A stretch of DNA of 64,000 nt from Paludibacteraceae bacterium (GCA_017467185.1 JAFTSS010000085.1:1-64000), one strand, 5' to 3'; numbered from the stretch's first letter, positions 4,298-47,812 are shown. The notes: generated by a model not told the origin, from the sequence alone. Numbers and translations are program-made.

Positions 4298-4478
4298 AGT
4301 AAATTTTTTAATATGTTAAAAAACAGTTAGTTGTTGTTTTTGTGCGTAAAGTATAGTTTACGAGACAAAGGTAAGCATTAAATTGCTTATAAGCAAATTT
4401 TTGAGGAGGAATTTTTCAAAAATGTTTGTTTTTGTGTTTTGGGTAGTTTTTTTAGATATAATAACAGTTTTTTCTTTT

Positions 4479-4725
4479 AGACATAATGACATAAAGACAT
4501 AATTTTTTTTCTGCATACGCCTTGCTACATCTACGATGTATCTTGGCGGAAGAATGACAGACCTATCGGTATTAAAATCTGTCATTCTTTGGTTGAGATG
4601 AAACTTTGGTTTCAGCAAAGCTTATGTTAAGAGTGATAAATTTTGTCATTATGTCATTTTGTCTCAAAATTAATCTGTTTGAAATTAATTTTGAGTGAGT
4701 TTGCTACTATTTATAAGCTCTATTT
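4479..4725 (+). mobile_element. MITE-like element family A, copy 1 (terminal inverted repeats AGACATAATGACA / TGTCATTATGTCAT)
   Basis: Near-identical to copy 2 and similar to copy 3. It has an internal perfect hairpin aagaatgacaga...tctgtcattctt. Confidence 0.7.
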
Positions 4726-4730
4726 CTTTT

Positions 4731-4975
4731 AGACATAATGACATAAAGACATAATTTTTTTTTCTGCATACGCCTTGCTACATCTACGATGTATCTTGGC
4801 GGAAGAATGACAGACCTATCGGTATTAAAATCTGTCATTCTTTGGCTGAGATGAAACTTTGGTTTCAGCAAAGCTTGTGTTAAGAGTGATAAATTTTGTC
4901 ATTATGTCATTTTGTCTTAAAATTAATCTGTTTGAAATTAATTTTGAGTGAGTTTGCTACTATTTAACGTGAGTT
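4731..4975 (+). mobile_element. MITE-like element family A, copy 2 (tandem with copy 1)
   Basis: About 97% identical to 4479-4725. Confidence 0.7.
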
Positions 4976-5368
4976 CGATATAACTTTATAGCACACGGAA
5001 AACACGGATGACACAGAATTTGATTATTTATCTCCCACAGATTTTTTAACAAGATTATTGCTGTGCTCGGCAATTAGAGTAAACTCTATTGCTCTCGCTT
5101 ATCGCAATAATTCACAGATTTCTCAGATATTTTTCTTTCTTTACTATTCGATTTTTATCAAGATTTTGTTTATATTCAGCATAACCCAAATAAATTTGGC
5201 TTCTGCTCTCACTTATCACAAAATTCGCTCTTTTGCTACGCAAAAATAACTTCGTTGAAATTGCTTTCGTTCGGCAACTGAAGTAAACTTCGTTGCTCTC
5301 ACTTATTCGCAATTTTCGCTCTACTGATAACACGGATGCCATACGGCGTTTTATATCGAACGGACGTT
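4966..5368 (+). mobile_element. MITE-like element family B, copy 1 (18-bp TIR AACGTGAGTTCGATATAA / TTATATCGAACGGACGTT), enlarged by an internal duplication
   Basis: Its TIRs are shared with the copies at 14209 and 46690. The flanking hexamer TATTTA is duplicated. The right TIR supplies the last codons and stop of ispG. Confidence 0.65.
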
Positions 5369-6076
5369 ATTTATAAGCTCTAAAAGTTTTTCGATTGCTT
5401 CTTCTTCGGGGATGTTTTTCATTACGCATTCTTTGCCTTTGTAGAGTGAGACTTTACCCATTCCGGCTCCGATGTAGCCAAAGTCGGCATCTGCCATTTC
5501 GCCTGGTCCGTTGACGATACAGCCCATGACGGCGATTTTGAGGCCTACGAAACCTTGTGTGGCTTCTTTGACTTGACGGACTACACGTGGTAGGTCAAAT
5601 TTTGTACGCCCGCAAGATGGACATGAGGTGTATTCGGTTTTGCTGATGCGACAGCGTGATGATTGTAGGATTTCGAATGCTATGTCGTTGACTTGTTCGG
5701 CTGTGATGAATTCAGATTTGTTTGTGAGCCAAATGCCATCGATTAGGCCGTCGATTAGGTATGGTCCGAAGAAAGCTGCTGCGTGTATTTGAAGTGTTTC
5801 TAAATCGTCGAGTTCGAAGTGTTTTTTTAGGATTATTGGTTTGTCTGTTTTGAGTAATTCGTTGAAATTTGATAAATCTTCAACAATTGCAATATTTCCT
5901 TCTAAAGTCATAATCTCATCTGCAGTATAATCAGGTTTTAGTAGGGTGTTAAGTTGTTCGTTTGCTATTACAACTACGGGATTATTACCACCTATTTTGT
6001 CTATTGCAATGCTTTTGCGACGAGAATATTCAGTCTTTAATTTTGTGTTATCAATTTTGCATTTTGCATTTTGCAT
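5351..6076 (-). CDS. ispG: 4-hydroxy-3-methylbut-2-enyl diphosphate synthase, C-terminal segment (insert domain plus 4Fe-4S domain)
   Basis: 241 aa carrying the conserved C-terminal CPSCGRT...KIAVMGCIVNGPGE motif region of IspG/GcpE. It begins with its own ATG inside the heptamer tract. Confidence 0.8.
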   Translation of the reverse strand: MQNAKCKIDNTKLKTEYSRRKSIAIDKIGGNNPVVVIANEQLNTLLKPDYTADEIMTLEGNIAIVEDLSNFNELLKTDKPIILKKHFELDDLETLQIHAAAFFGPYLIDGLIDGIWLTNKSEFITAEQVNDIAFEILQSSRCRISKTEYTSCPSCGRTKFDLPRVVRQVKEATQGFVGLKIAVMGCIVNGPGEMADADFGYIGAGMGKVSLYKGKECVMKNIPEEEAIEKLLELINNVRSI

Positions 6077-6909
6077 TCTACATAGTCAACAAGTTTGCGA
6101 GCTACGGGGATTTCGGCTTCAGGGGCTTCGGATAGGGATACGCGGATTGTGTCGCCAATGCCGTCGTGGAGGAGAGTGCCGATGCCGACTGCTGATTTTA
6201 TGCGTCCTTCGTCGTCGCTGCCAGCTTCGGTTACGCCGAGATGAAGTGGATAGTTTTTGCCTTTGGCGTCCATCATTTGTACTAATAGGCGTACTGCGTA
6301 AATCATTACGCGTGTGTTAGAGGCTTTGACAGAGAGGATTAGGTTGGTAAAGCCTTCTTGCTCGCAGAGTTCGATGAACTCCATACATGAAGTGGCAAGT
6401 CCGAGAGGTGTGTTGCCGTAACGGCTCATGATGCGAGGAGAGAGTGAACCGTGGTTGACGCCGATGCGAATGGCTGTGCCTTTGTCTTTGCAGATAGAGA
6501 GCAGTGTGTGTAGTTTTTCGCGGATACGGCGTAGTTCGTCGTTCCATTCTTCATCGGTGTAGTCGCCATGCTTGCCAGTGACGAAGTTGCCGGGATTGAT
6601 GCGCACTTTTTCAACTAATTGTGCAGCGACCTCAGCTACGTTGGCGTTGAAGTGGATGTCGGCAACGAGGGGTAGGTCGATGCCTTCGGTGCGTAACGCT
6701 TCTTTTATTTTGCCGAGATTTTCGGCTTCTTTTGTGCCTTGTGTGGTGTAGCGGAGTAGTTCTGTGCCAGCTTCGAGACAGTGTTTTGCTTGAGCCACAG
6801 AGGCCTCGATATCGTTAGTGTCGGTGTTGGCCATTGTTTGTATGCGGATAGGGTTGTTGCCACCGATGCGCAAGTTGCCAACTTGAATTTCTTTTGTTTG
6901 TCGTCTCAT
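6037..6909 (-). CDS. ispG: 4-hydroxy-3-methylbut-2-enyl diphosphate synthase, N-terminal TIM-barrel segment (frame-separated from the C-terminal segment)
   Basis: 290 aa with N-terminus MRRQTKEIQVGNLRIGGNNPIRIQTMANTDT, typical of IspG. It ends 40 nt inside the next ORF in a different frame. Confidence 0.8.
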   Translation of the reverse strand: MRRQTKEIQVGNLRIGGNNPIRIQTMANTDTNDIEASVAQAKHCLEAGTELLRYTTQGTKEAENLGKIKEALRTEGIDLPLVADIHFNANVAEVAAQLVEKVRINPGNFVTGKHGDYTDEEWNDELRRIREKLHTLLSICKDKGTAIRIGVNHGSLSPRIMSRYGNTPLGLATSCMEFIELCEQEGFTNLILSVKASNTRVMIYAVRLLVQMMDAKGKNYPLHLGVTEAGSDDEGRIKSAVGIGTLLHDGIGDTIRVSLSEAPEAEIPVARKLVDYVECKMQNAKLITQN

Positions 6910-6959
6910 AATATTTAACTATATGGAAATTTTAACAGAAGTACAAATCTCTTATTTTT

Positions 6960-7190
6960 AGACATAATGACAGAAGAACATATTTTTTTTGTTTATATAT
7001 ACCTCGCTACATCAACGATGTATCTCGGTAAAACAATGACAAACCTACCGGTATCAAAATATGTCATTTTTTTGCCGAGATGAAACTTTAGGTTCAGCAA
7101 GGCATTTGCATATGAGTGATAAATTTTGTCATTATGTCATTCTGTCTGAAAAAATCATTCTGTTTAAAAGAATGAAAATTAAATCTGTAC
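6960..7190 (+). mobile_element. MITE-like element family A, copy 3
   Basis: Same TIRs (agacataatgaca ... tgtcattatgtcattctgtct), about 80% identical to copies 1 and 2. Confidence 0.6.
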
Positions 7191-9256: not shown

Positions 9257-9365
9257 GAGTGAGGAATTAGGAATTAGGAATTAGGAATGAGGAATTCGGA
9301 GTTAGGAATTGAATTTCTCAATTCTCAACTTTCAACTTTCAATTTTCAAATTTCAATTTTTTGTA
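9257..9365 (+). repeat. heptamer microsatellites (AGGAATT)n then (TCAACTT/TCAATTT)n immediately 5' of the antiporter start codon
   Basis: Direct inspection. Confidence 0.8.
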
Positions 9366-18233: not shown

Positions 18234-18690
18234 TAGTTTAGAGTTAAAAGTTTAGAGTTAAGAGTTAAGAGTTAAGAGTTTAGAGTTAAGAGTTAAGAGT
18301 TTAGTGTTTAGAGTTAAGAGTTAAGAGTTTAGTGTTTAGGGTTAAGAGTTTAGTGTTTAGAGTTAAGAGTTTAGTGTTTAGAGTTTAGTGTTTAGAGTTA
18401 AGAGTTTAGCGTTTAGAGTTAAGAGTTAAGAATTAAGAATTAAAAATTAAAACATTTAATTCCACATTCCACATTCCTCACTCCTCATTCCTCACTCCTC
18501 ATTCCTCATTCCTCATTCCCCATTCCTCATTCCCCATTCCTCATTCCCCATTCCTCATTCTCCATTCCTCATTCCCCATTCCTCATTCCACATTCCACAT
18601 TCCACATTCCTCATTCCTCATTCCCCATTCCTCATTCCACATTACTCATTCCACATTACTCATTCCACATTCCACATTCCTCATTCCTCA
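18234..18690 (+). repeat. two abutting heptamer microsatellite arrays, about 31 x (GAGTTAA/GAGTTTA/GTGTTTA) then about 33 x (CATTCCT/CATTCCA/CATTCCC)
   Basis: Direct inspection. The arrays fill the whole gap between the lptC-like stop and the gldE-like start. Confidence 0.9.
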
Positions 18691-19265
18691 ATAGGTATTG
18701 TGCCTTTTGGTTGGCGTATGCTGTATCGGCTGAAGGTTTGATTAGATTCGAACCCGATGCCGAGTATTTTTCTGTCTTTTTGGATGATTGTTATTGCAGA
18801 GTCGCTATATACGCGCTCTTCTTTTTGGTCCCAATATAGTTCATTGGTATAAAATTCCTCTTGGTTGAGATTTGTTGCCTCAATGTTGTCATTGAGTTTC
18901 CATAGTTCTAATTTGCTGTAATAAATTGCTTTATCGCATTCTATTTCAGCATCAATGTTGTAGTTTTCGTCGAAGCGTTCAAAACGTAATCCGTTTGGAA
19001 AATCCCAATATGGGGTATCGGCTTTTTCATAGACGTACCAATCTGGAGCTATAATTCTGTAACGGATTATACCAGAGTCGGATACGATGGTTGTTATTGA
19101 ATCGGCATACACCTGAGGTGTATGTTTTATATCAGTTATGGAAGATGTCATGTCGTGCTTTGTTTGGCACGAAAAAAATAATGCACAATGCAAAATGCAC
19201 AATGCACAAAAAAAATTAGATACGAGATGCGAGACACGAGATGCGAGACACGAGATGTGAGGCAT
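18681..19265 (-). CDS. hypothetical protein, possibly LptC-family periplasmic LPS-export protein. The start is uncertain (alternative ATG at 19151).
   Basis: 194 aa. The N-terminal 38 aa are encoded by an (ATGCACA)n heptamer tract. Conserved Bacteroides synteny (coaX - OMP - TPR - lptC - gldE - ppiD) supports the call. Confidence 0.35.
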   Translation of the reverse strand: MPHISCLASRVSHLVSNFFCALCILHCALFFSCQTKHDMTSSITDIKHTPQVYADSITTIVSDSGIIRYRIIAPDWYVYEKADTPYWDFPNGLRFERFDENYNIDAEIECDKAIYYSKLELWKLNDNIEATNLNQEEFYTNELYWDQKEERVYSDSAITIIQKDRKILGIGFESNQTFSRYSIRQPKGTIPIEE

Positions 19266-19349: not shown

Positions 19350-20660
19350 TTATTTGCTACGAACAGTAGTTGTTTCATTTACCCAACCGCCTACGTAGTG
19401 CGATTTGCCTTCTTCTACGTCAGGGTGCATGAATACCTCTTCTTTAGAAGGGAAATATGCGCTATATGTACGGATGAGTTTGTTAGCTTGTTCAATCATA
19501 TCTTCTGTTGGTTCTACACTTTTTGCTTTTGCAAATTGGTCAACTGATGCCCAATATACTGCTTTTTGGAGTGTTGGGTCGTCAGATACTTTTGCTTGTG
19601 CATAAACAAGACCAAGCATGATATGAGGTTGTCCTTGTGCAGGATTTTTAGCTAACGATTCTTTGCAATATTTACGTACATTTTGGTATTGCTCTTTTTT
19701 GTAATATACTTGAGCAATGCGGAACAAGTTGTCGGCAATATCTAAATCTTCAGTTGAAAGATTTACAGCTTCTTGATAATATTCAATAGCTTTGTCTAAA
19801 TCGCCTTTTACGTATGACATATTGCCAAGACCAGTAGCAGCTTCGGCAGATGGTGAAATTTTGTGAGCATATTCAGCCGCTTTGTAGTATGCTTCGTGTT
19901 CGATACATTTCAAGCGTTTGAACAATTTCATTACGCCTTCAAGATATTTGAGGTCAGCATTGTTACGTTCAACATTTGGCAAGAAGATTTCGTTCATTTT
20001 TGCGCAATCTGCAACGCCCGAAGCAGCAAAAAGTACATCAACAGCAGCTTTTACACTTGTATAGTCTTCGGCATTTTTGAGGTCAGCATTTTGACCATTT
20101 GCTGTTAAGATAGCATCAGCAAAAGTGTAGTCGCCGATAAATTGTTCAGCCAAAGTGTTGTCTGCTTTATAAAGATTAGCAGATGTAAATACAAAGAGTT
20201 GTAATTCGTTGGCTGCAGCGGCATTGCCCAAACCGTGAATAGCTTCTTTAATCCAAGGATAAATAGTTGCATTATCGTCTGGGAAGTATTTGTTATGCTT
20301 TGATGCTTTGTCTGCTAAAATTGCAGGACGAGGAGTTTTTTTGTCGTTTCCAAAATATTGGATGCGGTCATCATACAATTTCATCAATTGATTGAATGCA
20401 GCATTAAATTCATCTTGAGTTGTAGCTTGTTTGATTTTCCATTCGAGGATTCTAACACCGAGAGCATAGATGTTTTTTGATGCAGATGGACACTCAGTGT
20501 AAACTTTCATCCATGGCTCGTAAGCGTCGGCATAGTTTTTAACTTTTGCATACTCAGTGAAAAGTGAAAGGTTCACTTTGCATTCTTCTGACATTTGTGC
20601 CGCAATATTGCTTACAAACAACATCGCCACAAATAAAGCAGTTAATTTTAATGATTTCAT
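19350..20660 (-). CDS. tetratricopeptide-repeat lipoprotein/periplasmic protein
   Basis: 436 aa with a signal peptide and multiple TPR-like helical repeats (e.g. AIEYYQEAVNL). Confidence 0.55.
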   Translation of the reverse strand: MKSLKLTALFVAMLFVSNIAAQMSEECKVNLSLFTEYAKVKNYADAYEPWMKVYTECPSASKNIYALGVRILEWKIKQATTQDEFNAAFNQLMKLYDDRIQYFGNDKKTPRPAILADKASKHNKYFPDDNATIYPWIKEAIHGLGNAAAANELQLFVFTSANLYKADNTLAEQFIGDYTFADAILTANGQNADLKNAEDYTSVKAAVDVLFAASGVADCAKMNEIFLPNVERNNADLKYLEGVMKLFKRLKCIEHEAYYKAAEYAHKISPSAEAATGLGNMSYVKGDLDKAIEYYQEAVNLSTEDLDIADNLFRIAQVYYKKEQYQNVRKYCKESLAKNPAQGQPHIMLGLVYAQAKVSDDPTLQKAVYWASVDQFAKAKSVEPTEDMIEQANKLIRTYSAYFPSKEEVFMHPDVEEGKSHYVGGWVNETTTVRSK

Positions 20661-22036: not shown

Positions 22037-22807
22037 CTATTTTGATATATTTTTCGCAATAAAGTTTAATCCCTTTGGCACAAGCATCGGTTCAAAAAAT
22101 AGCGAGGAGTGAGAAGTGAGGAGCGAGGAGTTATCTATAATGTTTAAATTAAAAAGTCCTCCAGTCAATATCACTTTTAAGTTATTATACTCCTTTAAAT
22201 ATTTTTCAATGTAGCCATTTATTTCGTTTATCACACCCCAATATGCCCCATTCAAAATTGCCTCACGGGTTGTTAAGCCCAATTGAGCATTGTGCATTTT
22301 TTGCTTTGGTTCAAAACCATTTTCTATTGAGCATTGTGGAAGTGCTGCCGTAAAATGATGCATAGCATCCAATCTCATTTGTATGCCAGGGGCAATATTA
22401 CCACCTACGAAATGACCATCAATCAACAAATCGTACGTATTGCATGTGCCACAATCAATTACCAAATAATTTCCCTTGCCAGCAATTGCGTATGCCCCAG
22501 CCAAAGCCGCAATCCTATCCTTGCCCAAAGTTTCAGGTGTTAAGTAATCAATTTCGAATGGTAGAGGTGATTTGTATGACAATAGATGATATTTTGCGTC
22601 TATTTCGTCTAATAATTGTGCAATTCTTCTCTCTTTTTCAGGATTAACACTCGACACGATAACATATTTGAGTAGGTCAAACCGAGAAAACAAATTAACT
22701 ATGTCTTCTTTATTAAATTGTTCAAATACAATATGTTCAACCAACCGTTCTCCATCGAAAACAGCTGCCTTTGTTTTAGTATTGCCTATGTCGATAGTCA
22801 GTACCAT
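22037..22807 (-). CDS. coaX: type III pantothenate kinase
   Basis: 256 aa with N-terminus MVLTIDIGNTKTKAAVFDG, characteristic of CoaX. Confidence 0.85.
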   Translation of the reverse strand: MVLTIDIGNTKTKAAVFDGERLVEHIVFEQFNKEDIVNLFSRFDLLKYVIVSSVNPEKERRIAQLLDEIDAKYHLLSYKSPLPFEIDYLTPETLGKDRIAALAGAYAIAGKGNYLVIDCGTCNTYDLLIDGHFVGGNIAPGIQMRLDAMHHFTAALPQCSIENGFEPKQKMHNAQLGLTTREAILNGAYWGVINEINGYIEKYLKEYNNLKVILTGGLFNLNIIDNSSLLTSHSSLFFEPMLVPKGLNFIAKNISK

Positions 22808-25037: not shown

Positions 25038-25140
25038 CTCTCCAACTCTAAACACTCAACACTCAACATTCAACACTCAACACTCAACACTCAACACTCA
25101 ACTCTAAACACTAAACTCTCAACACTAAACTTTATATATT

Positions 25141-26629: not shown

Positions 26630-27094
26630 ATGATACAGAAAGATATTATTACTAATTTGGTTATCAGCAAATTAGCTGATACAAGATATTTTTTGGTTGA
26701 TGTTACAGTTTCGGCTGATAATGTGATAAAGGTAGAAATTGATGCCGAGGAGGGTGTTGATATTGACTTTTGTGTTGAACTAAATCGTTTTATTGAAGCT
26801 AACTTTGATCGTGAGGTGGAGGATTATGAGCTTGAAGTAGGTTCGGCAGGTCTTACATCTCCGTTTAAGGTGAAACGTCAATACGAAAAAAATCTAAACA
26901 AAGAGGTTGAAGTGTTAGAGGCGAATGGTATTAAGCATGAGGGCGTGTTGGTAGAGGTAGATGATGAAAAATTCGCTATTGACGAGACTAAAATGATACG
27001 TAAAGAAGGTGATAAGCGCAAAAAGCCTTATACAGAGCGTATAGAATTTAAGTATTCAGAAATAAAATATACAAAATATAAATTTAAAATTTAA
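26630..27094 (+). CDS. rimP: ribosome maturation factor RimP
   Basis: 154 aa in the conserved position before nusA. Confidence 0.8.
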   Translation: MIQKDIITNLVISKLADTRYFLVDVTVSADNVIKVEIDAEEGVDIDFCVELNRFIEANFDREVEDYELEVGSAGLTSPFKVKRQYEKNLNKEVEVLEANGIKHEGVLVEVDDEKFAIDETKMIRKEGDKRKKPYTERIEFKYSEIKYTKYKFKI

Positions 27095-27180
27095 TTTGAA
27101 ATTTTAAATTTGAAATTTTAAATCTTCGTTATGATTTTCAACTTTCAACTTTCAATTTTCAATTTTCAACTTTAAACGTA

Positions 27181-33269: not shown

Positions 33270-35057
33270 TTACATTCTTTCAGGCATTTCAATGCCGAGC
33301 AATCCCATACCCGAAGTGATAACTTTAGCCACATTAGCAGAAAGTAATAGACGTAAGTTTTTAATCTCTGCATTCTCTTCCTTCAATATTGGAGATGCTT
33401 GATAGAATTGATTATACTCTTTCACTAAGTCATATACATAGTTGGCAATCAATGCAGGCGAGAAATCTTCACCAGCTTGGCGCACTACGTTAGGGTAGTT
33501 TGTAAGCATTTGAATGAGAGTACGTTCTTTGTCAGTAATTTCCATAGCCTCATTTGCTGCTACTACATTGATACCTTGTTCTGCAGCCTTGCGGAGAACT
33601 GATTTGATACGGGCGTTTGTATATTGAATAAATGGACCTGTATTTCCGTTAAAATCAATAGATTCTTTAGGGTTGAAAGTCATATTTTTGCGTGGATCGA
33701 CTTTCAAAATAAAATATTTTAATGCACCAAGACCGACCATGCGGCAAATGTCATTGATTTCCTCTTCCGAGCAATTATCTAATTTGCCAAGTTCGTCAGA
33801 TGTTTCGCGCGCTTGTGCCACCATTTCGGCAATCAAGTCGTCGGCATCAACCACAGTACCTTCGCGGCTCTTCATCTTACCTTCAGGCAACTCAACCATA
33901 CCGTATGAGAAGTGTACTAACTCTTTACCCCATTCAAAACCGAGTTCGTCGAGCAATAATGAAAGTACTTGGAAGTGATAATTTTGTTCATTACCAACCA
34001 CATACACCATTTTGTTGATAGGGTAGTCTTGATAACGGAGTTTAGCTGTACCAATGTCTTGAGTCATATATACAGAAGTACCGTCTGTACGCAACAACAA
34101 TTTCTCGTCCAAGCCATCGGCTGTCAAGTTAGCCCAAACTGAATTATCAGGGCGGCGGTAGAAAATGCCTTTTTCAAGACCTTCTTCCACTTTCGATTTA
34201 CCTTCGAGGTATGTGTCTGACTCATAGTATATTTTATCGAAATCGACACCCATTTTTTTGTATGTTTCGTCGAAGCCAGCATATACCCATTCGTTCATTT
34301 CGCGCCACAAAGCACGTACTTCAGGGTCGTTTTGTTCCCATTTCAAAAGCATAGCTTGAGCTTCAACCATAAGTGGAGCTTTACGTTTTGCCTCATCTTC
34401 TTCCATGCCTTGAGCCATAAGTTCTTTGACTTCGGCTTTATAATGTTTGTCAAATTCTACATAGTATTTTCCTACAAGGTGGTCGCCTTTCATGCCACTT
34501 GATGCAGGAGTTTCGCCATTGCCATATTTCAACCATGCCAACATCGATTTGCAGATGTGGATACCGCGGTCGTTTACTATGTTAGTTTTTACAATTTTCC
34601 AGCCATTAGCCTCTTGAATACGTGAAATAGAGTAGCCGAGAAGGTTATTTCTAATATGTCCAAGGTGTAAAGGTTTGTTAGTATTAGGTGATGAATATTC
34701 AATCATCATCAATGGCGAATTTTCATTTGCACGAGTATGGCCAAAGTCAGCGTCTGCATTGATATTATTGAGCGTAGCTACCCAATGTTGTTGATTTATC
34801 GAAAGATTCAAAAAACCTTTTACAACATTAAATTTAACTACAAGAGCCTCATTAGCAACCAAATATTCACCAATTTCAGTACTTACTTGTTCAGGTGCTT
34901 TGCGCGCAGCTTTTACAAAAGGGAAGGTTAACAACGTAATATCGCCTTCAAACTCACTGCGAGTTTTTTGTAATTGCACTGCACTCTCTTCAACTTCAAG
35001 GCCATAAAGCGATTTTACGGCAGCAACAACAGCTTTCGATAATTTAGTTTCAATCAT
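33270..35057 (-). CDS. argS: arginine--tRNA ligase
   Basis: 595 aa with the class I HIGH-region motif PNTNKPLHLGHIRNN, the KMSKS-region motif GKMKSREG and C-terminus ...GIEMPERM. Confidence 0.95.
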   Translation of the reverse strand: MIETKLSKAVVAAVKSLYGLEVEESAVQLQKTRSEFEGDITLLTFPFVKAARKAPEQVSTEIGEYLVANEALVVKFNVVKGFLNLSINQQHWVATLNNINADADFGHTRANENSPLMMIEYSSPNTNKPLHLGHIRNNLLGYSISRIQEANGWKIVKTNIVNDRGIHICKSMLAWLKYGNGETPASSGMKGDHLVGKYYVEFDKHYKAEVKELMAQGMEEDEAKRKAPLMVEAQAMLLKWEQNDPEVRALWREMNEWVYAGFDETYKKMGVDFDKIYYESDTYLEGKSKVEEGLEKGIFYRRPDNSVWANLTADGLDEKLLLRTDGTSVYMTQDIGTAKLRYQDYPINKMVYVVGNEQNYHFQVLSLLLDELGFEWGKELVHFSYGMVELPEGKMKSREGTVVDADDLIAEMVAQARETSDELGKLDNCSEEEINDICRMVGLGALKYFILKVDPRKNMTFNPKESIDFNGNTGPFIQYTNARIKSVLRKAAEQGINVVAANEAMEITDKERTLIQMLTNYPNVVRQAGEDFSPALIANYVYDLVKEYNQFYQASPILKEENAEIKNLRLLLSANVAKVITSGMGLLGIEMPERM

Positions 35058-39546: not shown

Positions 39547-40626
39547 TTGATTATGAAACGAATAACTACAATTATATCTTTTTTATTGCTTGCTTTTTTT
39601 AGCTACTCGCAAATGTATGTTTGGCAAAATGGCGCATTAGTTGGCGATTATGCTGAAGGAGTTATTGATAGTGTTAAATTTGTAAAACCAGAACCACAAG
39701 TGGAGACTCTTCGTAATGAGCCTACCGAAGGTGGATTGTTAAAAGCATTTTCTATAGCCGATGGTGCCACTGTTTTTTTCTCACAAGGCAATCTTCGTTA
39801 TAAACCATCAACTAAAGAGTGGGCTTTTGCTTCTGAGCAAACAAGTCGAGTAGGTGCGGGAAATGCATCTATCGCCGAAGAACATACAGGTTGGATCGAC
39901 CTTTTTGGTTGGGGTACAAGTGGTTATAACAACGTAGCGCCATACCTCTCAGTTCAAGACTATACTAAATACGCTAATGTGCAAAACATTGCAGGCACAA
40001 ATTACGATTGGGGCGTTTATAATAAGATTTCTAATGGTGGCAATGAAGCTGGTTTGTGGCGTACGCTTACTGCTGACGAGTGGTTATATCTTTTCTACTC
40101 TCGCGAAAATGCCGACTCTCTTTTTGCTTTTGGTGTTGTAAATAGTGTCAAGGGACTTATTCTTTTGCCTGATAATTGGCAACAACCAGAGGGTGTTGAT
40201 TTTTACCCAAGTACCACTAAAGGTTTGATGCCTGAAGGTAAATATTTTTGGAATATGGCTTCTGATAATTACGAGCATAATACATATACCAAAGCTCAAT
40301 GGACAAAAATGGAAGAGGCAGGAGCTGTTTTCCTTCCTGCAGCAGGTTATCGCAGAGGCACTGAGGTAGAAGAGCTTAACGAATATGGAGCTTATTGGAC
40401 TGCATCTGGTCGAACTGACAATTTTGCTTATCGTACTATTTTTTATTCTTCTATTCTTAGCCCTGGTGGTAGCAATATTACCTATTATTACGGCTATTCA
40501 GTTCGCCTTGTGCAAGACGCCGTGAAAGTTATTCAACCACAAGGCGAAATGATTGTTTATAAAACAAATTCCGAAATAGATAAATACTTTGTTAATCAAG
40601 TAGATAGTATTACATATAAAAAATAA
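39547..40626 (+). CDS. hypothetical secreted protein, FISUMP-like (Fibrobacter major paralogous) domain candidate
   Basis: Signal peptide plus the motifs GAYWTASG and GYSVRLVQD, resembling the TIGR02145 domain. Confidence 0.4.
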   Translation: MIMKRITTIISFLLLAFFSYSQMYVWQNGALVGDYAEGVIDSVKFVKPEPQVETLRNEPTEGGLLKAFSIADGATVFFSQGNLRYKPSTKEWAFASEQTSRVGAGNASIAEEHTGWIDLFGWGTSGYNNVAPYLSVQDYTKYANVQNIAGTNYDWGVYNKISNGGNEAGLWRTLTADEWLYLFYSRENADSLFAFGVVNSVKGLILLPDNWQQPEGVDFYPSTTKGLMPEGKYFWNMASDNYEHNTYTKAQWTKMEEAGAVFLPAAGYRRGTEVEELNEYGAYWTASGRTDNFAYRTIFYSSILSPGGSNITYYYGYSVRLVQDAVKVIQPQGEMIVYKTNSEIDKYFVNQVDSITYKK

Positions 40627-40687
40627 TTACTCATTCCTTAGGTTTTGGAGAGCAATGTAGCTTACTTTAGTTGCTGGTGAAAAATAA

Positions 40688-42142
40688 TTCCTCATTCATC
40701 ATTCCTCATTCCTCATTTTTAATATTTTTACCTTCATATTTTCAATCATTCTTCTCGTATTAGGCTATGTAGTATATGGTCGCATAGTCGCTCGAGTTTT
40801 TGGTGCAGACTCCAATCGTGTAACACCAGCCATAGCCAATCCCGATGGTGTTGACTATGTATCAATGCCATGGTGGAAAATTTTCCTTATTCAATTTCTT
40901 AATATTGCAGGGCTTGGACCTATTTTTGGCGCAATTATGGGAATCATGTTTGGTCCATCTGCATTTCTTTGGATTGTATTTGGCTCTATATTTGGTGGTG
41001 CTGTACATGATTATCTTTCGGGTATGTTGTCTATGCGACGCAATGGTGCATCATTGCCTGAATTAGTGGGTGAACAACTCGGTATGGGGGTTAAGCAATT
41101 TATGCGCGTTTTTTCGCTTTTGTTGATGGTGCTTGTTGGTGCTGTTTTTGTAAGCGGTCCTGCAGGTTTGCTTGCTGGTATGGTGAAATCTATTAGCGTT
41201 ACTTGGTGGATTGTAATTATTTTCGGCTATTATATGCTTGCAACTTTGCTCCCTATCGATAAACTCATTGGTAAAATCTATCCATTGTTCGGATTTGCTC
41301 TACTTTTTATGGCTGTAGGTATTTTGGTTTCTTTGTTTATTAACAACGCACCAATACCTGAAATTACATCTGGACTTGCAAGCCAACATCCACAAGGTTA
41401 TTCAATTTTTCCAATGATGTTTGTCTCTATTGCATGTGGGGCAGTCTCTGGTTTTCATGCTACTCAGTCGCCTATGATGGCACGCTGTATGACGAATGAA
41501 AAATATGGTCGTCCATGTTTTTATGGAGCTATGATTGCCGAAGGCATTGTTGCTCTTATTTGGGCAGCAGCAGCCTCTTCGTTCTTCGGTTCAGTTGGTG
41601 GATTGCAAGAGTATGTTGCCTCTTTACCTGCTACTGCAAACAAGGCTGCTGAGGTTGTTAATCTTATATCTAACACTTGGTTAGGTAAATTTGGTGGTAT
41701 TTTGGCCGTGTTGGGTGTTGTGGCTGCTCCTATTACTTCGGGCGATACAGCTCTCCGTTCAGCTCGCCTTATTGCTGCCGATTTTTTACATATTGATCAA
41801 AAACCAATTCTTAAGCGTCTTATGGTGGCAGTACCTCTTTTCGTGGGTACATTCATATTATTACAAATCAATTTTGATGTAATTTGGCGTTATTTTGCTT
41901 GGAGCAATCAAACACTTTCTGTCTTTACTTTTTGGGCATTGACAGTATATCTTTATAAGGAAAAACGTTGTTATTGGATAACTTTAATTCCTGCTCTATT
42001 TATGACTGCTGTATGTTCTGCCTATATTATGGTTGCCCCAGAAGGTTTCGGTCTCCCACTATATATAGGCTATATCGTCGCCGCAGTTGTTTGTATAGTT
42101 TTTACTCTTTTATTTATTCGTTTCACAAAAAATAAACTATAG
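40688..42142 (+). CDS. cstA: carbon starvation protein CstA; no canonical start, and the 5' end overlaps the (TTCCTCA)n array
   Basis: CstA homology (LGYVVYGRIVARVFGADSNRVTPAIANPDGVDYV...) starts upstream of the first ATG (40865) and runs back to the stop at 40685 inside the heptamer array. Confidence 0.7.
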   Translation, partial: FLIHHSSFLIFNIFTFIFSIILLVLGYVVYGRIVARVFGADSNRVTPAIANPDGVDYVSMPWWKIFLIQFLNIAGLGPIFGAIMGIMFGPSAFLWIVFGSIFGGAVHDYLSGMLSMRRNGASLPELVGEQLGMGVKQFMRVFSLLLMVLVGAVFVSGPAGLLAGMVKSISVTWWIVIIFGYYMLATLLPIDKLIGKIYPLFGFALLFMAVGILVSLFINNAPIPEITSGLASQHPQGYSIFPMMFVSIACGAVSGFHATQSPMMARCMTNEKYGRPCFYGAMIAEGIVALIWAAAASSFFGSVGGLQEYVASLPATANKAAEVVNLISNTWLGKFGGILAVLGVVAAPITSGDTALRSARLIAADFLHIDQKPILKRLMVAVPLFVGTFILLQINFDVIWRYFAWSNQTLSVFTFWALTVYLYKEKRCYWITLIPALFMTAVCSAYIMVAPEGFGLPLYIGYIVAAVVCIVFTLLFIRFTKNKL

Positions 42143-42214
42143 CTACTATAGTTCCTATAGGTTCTATAATTCCTCATTCCTCATTTCTCATTTCTCATTT
42201 CTCATTCCTCATTC
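42141..42214 (+). repeat. nonamer (CTATAGNNC) then heptamer (CATTCCT/CATTTCT)x7 array immediately 5' of the helicase start
   Basis: Direct inspection. Confidence 0.8.
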
Positions 42215-46617: not shown

Positions 46618-46689
46618 TAAATATTTCAGAACTAAAGTAGGGACACGGCATGCCGTGTCCGTTGTTAAATGGAATAAAAACACTTAATT

Positions 46690-46942
46690 ACGTCAGTTCG
46701 ATATAAAAATCCGTATGGTATCCGTGTAATCTGTAGAACTATTTTTGCGTAGTAAAAGAGCGAATTCAGCCAAAATCCTTCTCAACGTAGGGACGCACGG
46801 CTCGTGCGTCCGCTTAATATGTCTGTAGAACGGAGGGGTATGTGATAAAAAAATCGTGTTATCCGTGCATTTTTCGCCAAGGCTCAAGACCGTTGGTTCC
46901 GTGTGAGATAAAAGTTATATCGAACTCTCGTTAATTATGAAT
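46690..46942 (-). mobile_element. MITE-like element family B, copy 3 (inverted orientation, flanked by duplicated TTAATTA)
   Basis: About 85% identical to copy 2 over the whole length, with the same 18-bp TIRs. Confidence 0.7.
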
Positions 46943-47715: not shown

Positions 47716-47812
47716 CGGCTATAGCAACTATAGCAACTATAGCGGCTATAGCAACTATAGTAACTATAGCAACTATAGTTGCTAATTCCTAACTCCTCAT
47801 TCCTCATTCTCA
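47706..47812 (+). repeat. nonamer array (CTATAGCAA/CTATAGCGG)x~9 followed by (CATTCCT) heptamers, abutting the HAD-hydrolase start codon
   Basis: Direct inspection. Confidence 0.85.

Follow-up and report, generated by a model that had tools for sequence, protein, structure and literature searches.

A heptanucleotide array kept in frame within the interdomain linker of IspG in Candidatus Aphodosoma, and a frameshifting three-unit allele in one assembly

IspG is an essential enzyme of the methylerythritol phosphate (MEP) pathway. Here we examine its gene, ispG (gcpE), in a stretch of 64,000 nucleotides (nt) from a Paludibacteraceae bacterium (GCA_017467185.1, JAFTSS010000085.1:1-64000), referred to as the window, in which the gene is split into two frames at a tract of three ATGCAAA heptamers. 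The organism was identified as Candidatus Aphodosoma sp. (Paludibacteraceae), with its nearest species representatives at 89-90% protein identity and its own species absent from the GTDB representatives scanned, and the sample labels, together with the titles of neighbouring metagenome-assembled genomes, point to animal gut metagenomes.

The closest described enzymes are those of the three-domain form, A-A*-B, reported for Bacteroidota and others (PMC10663253). Like the three-domain IspG of Bacteroidota, Chlorobi, Chlamydiae, Verrucomicrobia and plants, the ispG of the window has GcpE and GcpE_C; unlike it, the window allele carries a frameshift that cuts the chain within the A-A* linker, and in the genus this linker is encoded by a heptanucleotide array. 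A* is also shorter here (521 aa in total) than in Paludibacter-type proteins. Tandem heptamers have themselves been described as start-proximal intergenic repeats, with the unit TAACTGA and a function that is unknown, in Beggiatoaceae, cyanobacteria and a few Bacteroidetes including Paludibacter (MacGregor 2015, PMC4679880), and heptanucleotide-rich "long simple sequence repeats" are attributed to Mrazek et al. 2007 in the summary given in PMC4679880. The arrays of the window are alike in being tandem heptamers, most of them intergenic and several ending 3-13 nt before a start codon, but their units are different and belong to many families, and the ispG tract differs further in lying deep within a coding region, which such repeats otherwise avoid. 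Heptanucleotides inside genes are known from contingency loci, such as the (AATTTTG)14 simple sequence repeat (SSR) inside hmw1A of Haemophilus influenzae PittAA (PMC2651432). The ispG tract resembles loci of this type in that a heptanucleotide lies in an open reading frame (ORF), a change of one unit shifts the frame and slipped-strand mispairing is presumed; it differs in being short (four units) and in belonging to a metabolic enzyme rather than a surface or restriction-modification gene, its in-frame copy number is conserved genus-wide, and reversible high-frequency switching was not found among the assemblies compared. In the literature searched, we found no description of a genus in which the linker of an essential enzyme contains an in-frame non-triplet array with turnover of its units.

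On the minus strand of the window, ispG is present as two overlapping ORFs, 6909..6037 and 6076..5351, with the following features.

6037..6909, minus strand: ispG 5′ ORF (ORF1), 290 aa; Pfam GcpE (PF04551), profile positions 1-257, E=1.5e-89
6039-6037, minus strand: TAA stop of ORF1, premature, following the out-of-frame tail LITQN
5351..6076, minus strand: ispG 3′ ORF (ORF2), 241 aa; GcpE profile positions 208-342, E=1.6e-32
6056..6076, minus strand: heptanucleotide tract (ATGCAAA)x3, perfect, in the context ga(ATGCAAA)x3 ATTG
6041..6081, minus strand: DNA of the A-A* linker (16 aa, residues 277-292), 41 nt in the window and 48 nt in the intact allele
6100..6906, minus strand: A domain (TIM barrel), residues 2-270, from the phmmer match to residues 13-255 of PDB 3NOY
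5684..6040, minus strand: A* insert, residues ~293-411, unmatched by 3NOY and 2Y0F, with a confident fold in the model and assigned from the literature
5363..5683, minus strand: B domain (4Fe-4S), residues 412-518, matching 3NOY 254-359, with C432, C435, C466 and E473

The two ORFs overlap by 40 nt (6037-6076), with ORF2 in the -1 frame relative to ORF1, and the first tract unit supplies the ATG of ORF2, which precedes the ORF1 stop by 37 nt. The coding-strand sequence across the junction is GTA GAA TGC AAA ATG CAA AAT GCA AAA TTG ATA ACA CAA AAT TAA. Tandem Repeats Finder (TRF) placed the repeat at 6054-6077 (3.4 copies, 100% match), and the periodic run at this site is ~31 nt long. An earlier sequence-only reading of the window had proposed exactly this arrangement, with ispG in two overlapping frames at a three-heptamer tract, the first ORF ending at 6037 and the second starting at 6076 within the tract; the ORF calls and their coordinates, the Pfam matches and TRF all agree with it. 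Its further proposal, that one or four copies would give a continuous IspG and three copies a split one, was reproduced when 0-7 units were simulated, as a single ORF was obtained only with 1, 4 or 7 units (514, 521 and 528 aa, respectively). ORF1 comprises residues 1-285 of the intact protein plus LITQN, and ORF2 corresponds exactly to residues 281-521; the residues of the enzyme are all retained and the chain is merely cut. The tract lies 703 and 832 nt from the gene ends and is thus not start-proximal. No known RNA was found at or near the ispG locus in Rfam.

A four-unit copy with a restored single ORF does exist. The conceptual four-unit fusion, compared with the protein collection, matched a 521-aa protein (P0001) with 100% identity and 100% coverage, and this protein is encoded on seven contigs. 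For two of these, L001 and L002, from the ENA assemblies ERZ28018778 and ERZ28654584, the alignments with the window are 16,916 nt and 11,654 nt long, respectively; they contain 0 mismatches, and the only gap in each is the missing heptamer. The neighbouring Na+/H+ exchanger, looked up as an exact match, is present on nine contigs, seven long ones and two short Logan contigs that stop before ispG; the seven long contigs match those of P0001 by size class, and the one that was fetched adjoins the 521-aa IspG. On the other hand, neither ORF1 nor ORF2 was on record as an exact product in the public assemblies searched, and the ORF1 homologue search, which apparently returned only proteins of up to ~1.75 times the query length, gave no near-identical truncated product, the best match being at 95% identity. 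The best 120 homologues were all single chains of 520-548 aa with GcpE and GcpE_C, two of them labelled Paludibacteraceae. A pattern scan of Joint Genome Institute (JGI) metagenomes for the strain's tract with 1-5 units gave 0 matches, and the JGI scan for related loci contributed only two further Aphodosoma loci. For this strain, seven assemblies carry four units and the window alone carries three, with no 2-, 5- or 6-unit alleles found. As judged from these assemblies, the three-unit allele is not the normal state of the lineage.

The cut falls between domains. The phmmer matches of the A domain to 3NOY, 2Y0F and 4MWA (E=3e-63 to 1e-47) cover residues 2-270, and residues ~271-411 (~140 residues) form an insertion between A and B that has no counterpart in these two-domain structures. 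C432, C435, C466 and E473, which we take from established IspG structures to be the cluster ligands, are invariant in 48 sequences, and PF26540 (GcpE_C) is a precomputed annotation on IspG homologues. The TIM-barrel A domain, the A* insert and the 4Fe-4S B domain of a three-domain IspG are thus all found, while the window allele does not encode them as a single polypeptide. In an AlphaFold model built from a 48-sequence alignment (mean predicted local distance difference test score, pLDDT, 82.5; predicted template modelling score, pTM, 0.85), residues 311-410 have a pLDDT of 83-94, and the sole long low-confidence stretch is 284-298 (pLDDT <50), directly after the last A-domain helix (263-283); a second, short stretch is at 303-307. 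The intact tract encodes residues 279-287 and one base of codon 278, and in the model it spans the end of the last A-domain helix and the start of a probably flexible linker.

Although the proteins of the genus are ~85-99% identical overall, a hypervariable segment, nearly always of 16 residues (26 in one subgroup), separates ...ARKLVDY from LKTEY... in them. A relative at 98% identity has (ATGCAAA)4 at the linker, like the intact allele of the strain, and a relative at 91% has ATGCAAA ATGCACA ATGCAAA ATGCACA. The linker is encoded by (ATGCACA)4 in L003, by (CTCAACG)4 followed by CTCAACT in L004 and by (TTCCTCA)4 in L007 and L009, the remaining loci having degenerate versions of the arrays. 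All of the congener linker arrays are in frame. The conserved flanks lie 50 nt apart in all loci read but L003 (+6 nt), even though the offsets of the arrays differ. In more distant genera (at most 64% identity), the array is absent from the linker site. The subgroup with 26 residues has a GC-rich, hairpin-like insert there in place of an array. The sequence-only reading had named, as a finding that would count against it, an unbroken gene lacking the repeat in all relatives; the relatives are indeed uninterrupted, but a repeat is not lacking, as the congeners carry four-unit arrays of different units. Because these arrays of other units are in frame within a 16-aa linker, the linker is under selection for its frame and also for its length, its sequence being free and shaped by the dynamics of the heptamer arrays.

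Other changes were observed in ispG of relatives. At L087 (13474-13620) and L088 (11834-11980), a GC-rich, hairpin-like 30-nt insert, TCTCCCCCTGTCTTAGGGGGAGTGCCCAAAGGGCGAGGGGG, replaces the clean heptamer array; these strains have a 533-aa IspG and carry a TPR protein identical to that at 19350-20660 of the window. The C-terminal 5-8 residues of IspG differ among near-identical proteins (NNVRSI, SSKLTQN, NNIHI, NNKTNQ and SSKK; window 5351-5400), which suggests sequence turnover at the 3′ end of ispG too. In another Paludibacteraceae genus (P0128; L092, 3660-3790), a deletion or replacement on a single scaffold breaks ispG in the A-A* linker; what is left is an A-domain ORF of 280 aa, and the A*-B remainder has no clean downstream start.

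Heptamer arrays are a general feature of the window. Perfect period-7 runs number 26, compared with 0 in Markov shuffles, whereas other periods are at chance. Although the window is ~82% coding, 23 of the 25 period-7 arrays called by TRF are intergenic or touch gene ends only, and the ispG tract is the only one deep inside a gene. The arrays in sense orientation are mostly G-poor, and the units include ATGCAAA, ATTCCTC, CAACACT and AGTTAAG, among many families (examples at 9262-9360, 18235-18692, 25043-25130, 27080-27177, 42169-42214 and 47785-47809). With at most one mismatch allowed, the window contains the two-unit pattern of the ispG tract 4 times, where 0.23 occurrences would be expected. 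Moreover, the three unit families of the ispG linkers of the genus, ATGCAMA, TTCCTCA and CTCAACN, recur as intergenic arrays in the window: five of 24 arrays are identical to them (0.15 expected), and 11 of the 24 are within one mismatch (~3 expected). The density of arrays declines with phylogenetic distance from the clade. Arrays of the window include the following.

18459-18690, 40687-40717 and 42169-42214: ATTCCTC arrays
25043-25130: CAACACT array
19181..19208, plus strand: intergenic twin of the ispG tract, ATGCACA ATGCAAA ATGCACA ATGCACA, upstream of lptC

The last of these is the second site of the ATGCAAA/ATGCACA family whose existence had been noticed from the sequence alone, and it has four units in 9 strains at 96-100% identity. 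Between corC/CNNM and lptC, at 18235-18692, (AGTTAAG)~30 and (ATTCCTC)~33 abut each other; these two genes lie 91 to 693 nt apart, depending on the strain, and the long arrays between them differ by hundreds of bases. In coaX (22037-22807, minus strand), the C-terminal tail of the type III pantothenate kinase is encoded by (GAGGAGT)4 at 22104-22131, and the product has 256, 262 or 268 aa depending on the strain.

Comparison of assemblies of the same strain showed where they differ. Between 9350 and 30515 of the window and L083, every difference lies inside a heptamer array. L083 has one extra unit in (TTAGTTA)5, an array of 35-42 nt which we would expect to be spanned by ordinary short reads, although the read lengths are not known; three periodically spaced substitutions at 27105-27129, with one adjacent flanking base, which homogenise the units; and one unit substitution plus an N gap in the (CAACACT) array. 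Between 32212 and 54728, comparison with three further assemblies gave a few single nucleotide polymorphisms (SNPs), of which 40698 and 40726 are private to the window and suggest an independent sample. Because the window shows no indels against the other assemblies outside repeats, it is not a generally error-prone assembly. On the other hand, L177 (ERZ28654512 scaffold_953, same strain) has, at the equivalent of window position 33982, lost 1 nt from a T4 run, so that the essential gene argS is split (595 aa into 209 + 379 aa), and has, at the equivalent of 40444, an octamer repeat, (CTATTCTT)3, that lacks one unit, by which the gene at 39553-40626 is cut from 357 to 299 aa.

We consider it rather probable, though by no means sure, that the three-unit tract is a one-unit contraction (4 to 3) by strand slippage that is present in real DNA, private to the sample and non-adaptive. 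In the normal state, ispG is one gene for a three-domain IspG, with the start of the A-A* linker encoded by (ATGCAAA)4. One unit would have been lost in the sampled population, most likely by slipped-strand mispairing during replication. The lack of 7 nt shifts the frame after residue 285: ORF1 meets a TAA 16 nt further on, and the A*-B part follows in the -1 frame, headed by an AUG that the first tract unit forms. Full-length IspG should then be abolished or strongly reduced, and perhaps some function would remain, for example if a restart at the AUG in the tract gave an A chain and an A*-B chain. The deletion of exactly one unit, the lack of other indels against the other assemblies in unique sequence, the whole-unit differences at other short arrays and the private SNPs favour real three-unit molecules. 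Furthermore, the run of ~31 nt is far shorter than both the reads and the final k-mer (k141), and by our reasoning three-unit reads should be needed before a de Bruijn assembler follows this path.

Several points weigh against this. The contig by itself would look the same for a real three-unit allele and for a product of assembly or consensus, and the three-unit products occur in none of the public assemblies searched, leaving a tally of one in eight. Short four-unit arrays look stable, as the intergenic ATGCAMA twin shows in its 9 strains, and a null allele would not be expected to prevail in a population when the gene is essential. Finally, the argS lesion of L177 shows that such lesions enter the assemblies of this strain, as errors or as minority variants. 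In itself the lesion is an ordinary one, an SSR frameshift in one assembly. The sequence-only reading had offered a slip, an ON/OFF switch and a two-polypeptide IspG; the slip, whether it occurred in the assembly or in vivo, survives, and the other two do not.

It is quite possible, without being probable, that the organism has four units and that the three-unit path came from assembly, bubble resolution, polishing, or rare or erroneous reads at low coverage. All seven other contigs of the strain have four units. The first base of the window is also the first base of the MEGAHIT contig k141_1254426, to which the window is otherwise identical over 16.9 kb, and both may stem from closely related or the same data. 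The frameshifts of L177 in argS and a second gene and the N gap inside an array in one scaffold show that, around repeats, the assemblies of the strain do have flaws. An artefact is less easily reconciled with a periodic run that is shorter than ordinary reads and k141, with the deletion of exactly one unit, or with unique sequence that has no other indels between the window and the other assemblies.

That a three-unit allele is viable, with the three-domain IspG acting as a covalently fused pseudo-dimer that tolerates a cut in its linker and with A*-B made from the AUG in the array, appears unlikely to us, and it is even less likely that the allele of the window is real and viable through non-covalent association of an A chain (residues 1-285) with an A*-B chain (281-521). 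The latter chain would start at the AUG in the tract, either directly or through ribosomes that restart once they have reached the ORF1 stop. The cut does fall in the low-confidence linker, the two products together hold every residue, and the AUG of ORF2 lies in an A-rich region without significant predicted structure; if the contig represents the majority allele of the sample, then the allele must be viable. In two-domain IspG, the A domain of each chain reportedly acts together with the B domain of its partner, and A* is said to have been proposed as a mimic of the partner's A (work of Liu et al. in 2012). However, we know of no natural split IspG and the split is not conserved; a two-polypeptide IspG as the typical state of the lineage is not supported, the best 120 homologues and the proteins of all other assemblies of the strain being single chains; most congener arrays also have no start codon. 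At the motif level, TAnnTTTG is absent from the minus strand within ORF1, and an internal promoter for ORF2 was rejected on this basis. Since there is no promoter-type motif inside ORF1, an A*-B chain would need the same mRNA, with restart or internal initiation. If the allele were viable after all, viable out-of-frame intermediates would explain how units are replaced and homogenised across the genus at a constant linker of 16 residues. Upstream of the gene, a match to the motif TAnnTTTG was detected.

7040..7047, minus strand: TAGGTTTG, match to the Bacteroidetes -7 motif TAnnTTTG, ~130 nt upstream of the ispG start; candidate promoter

An element of ~250 bp that resembles a miniature inverted-repeat transposable element (MITE), with 31-nt terminal inverted repeats (TTTTAGACATAATGACATAAAGACATAATTT ...), is present on both sides of ispG, at 4466-4966 (two tandem copies) and 6948-7154, with a related copy near 46686-46934. 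The candidate -7 motif of ispG falls within the upstream MITE-like copy.

An adaptive slipped-strand ON/OFF switch controlling ispG, that is, a contingency locus, is very improbable. A non-triplet SSR in a coding region, out of frame, is the classical architecture of such a switch, and the frame-setting repeat is indeed found here. As far as the assemblies compared show, a hypermutable tract is not, and the product is not a dispensable, environment-facing one: the tract has four units only, as it also does in the relatives at 98% and 91% identity, the copy number of the twin array is constant in 9 strains, the eight assemblies amount to seven ON and one OFF without other alleles, and the target is an essential housekeeping gene with a linker length fixed across the genus.

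Programmed recoding, with full-length IspG restored by -1 frameshifting (for example on A_AAA_U at GCA AAA UUG) or by transcriptional slippage, is scarcely credible and was rejected, for although tRNA-Lys, by slipping back one base on A AAA at 6056-6053, would reach the ORF2 frame before the stop, and although the downstream ORF overlaps the upstream one in the -1 frame as in dnaX-type frameshifting, ispG of the window, unlike dnaX-type genes, has no in-frame slippery heptamer (the X XXY YYZ motif is absent, A_AAA_U alone being found, and the longest homopolymer is 4 A), no predicted downstream stimulatory structure (minimum free energy -18.8 kcal/mol, compared with -19.1 on average for shuffled sequences; z=0.08) and no conserved arrangement, the gene being in frame in all relatives.

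The locus should be annotated as a frameshifted ispG, with a pseudogene label or a warning about the assembly; it gives no grounds for concluding that the enzyme is split or that the metabolic reconstruction lacks a step of the MEP pathway. What is unusual is that, throughout the genus, the linker of an essential enzyme contains a non-triplet repeat that is kept in frame while its units turn over. The start-proximal heptamer arrays found genome-wide share these units, and no mechanism for this shared vocabulary is evident. The genus thus offers a natural system for studying how arrays originate and turn over, be it by slippage, conversion or something more directed, and how freely the sequence of an interdomain linker can vary. 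Should the split form be functional, it would directly test the pseudo-dimer model of three-domain IspG.

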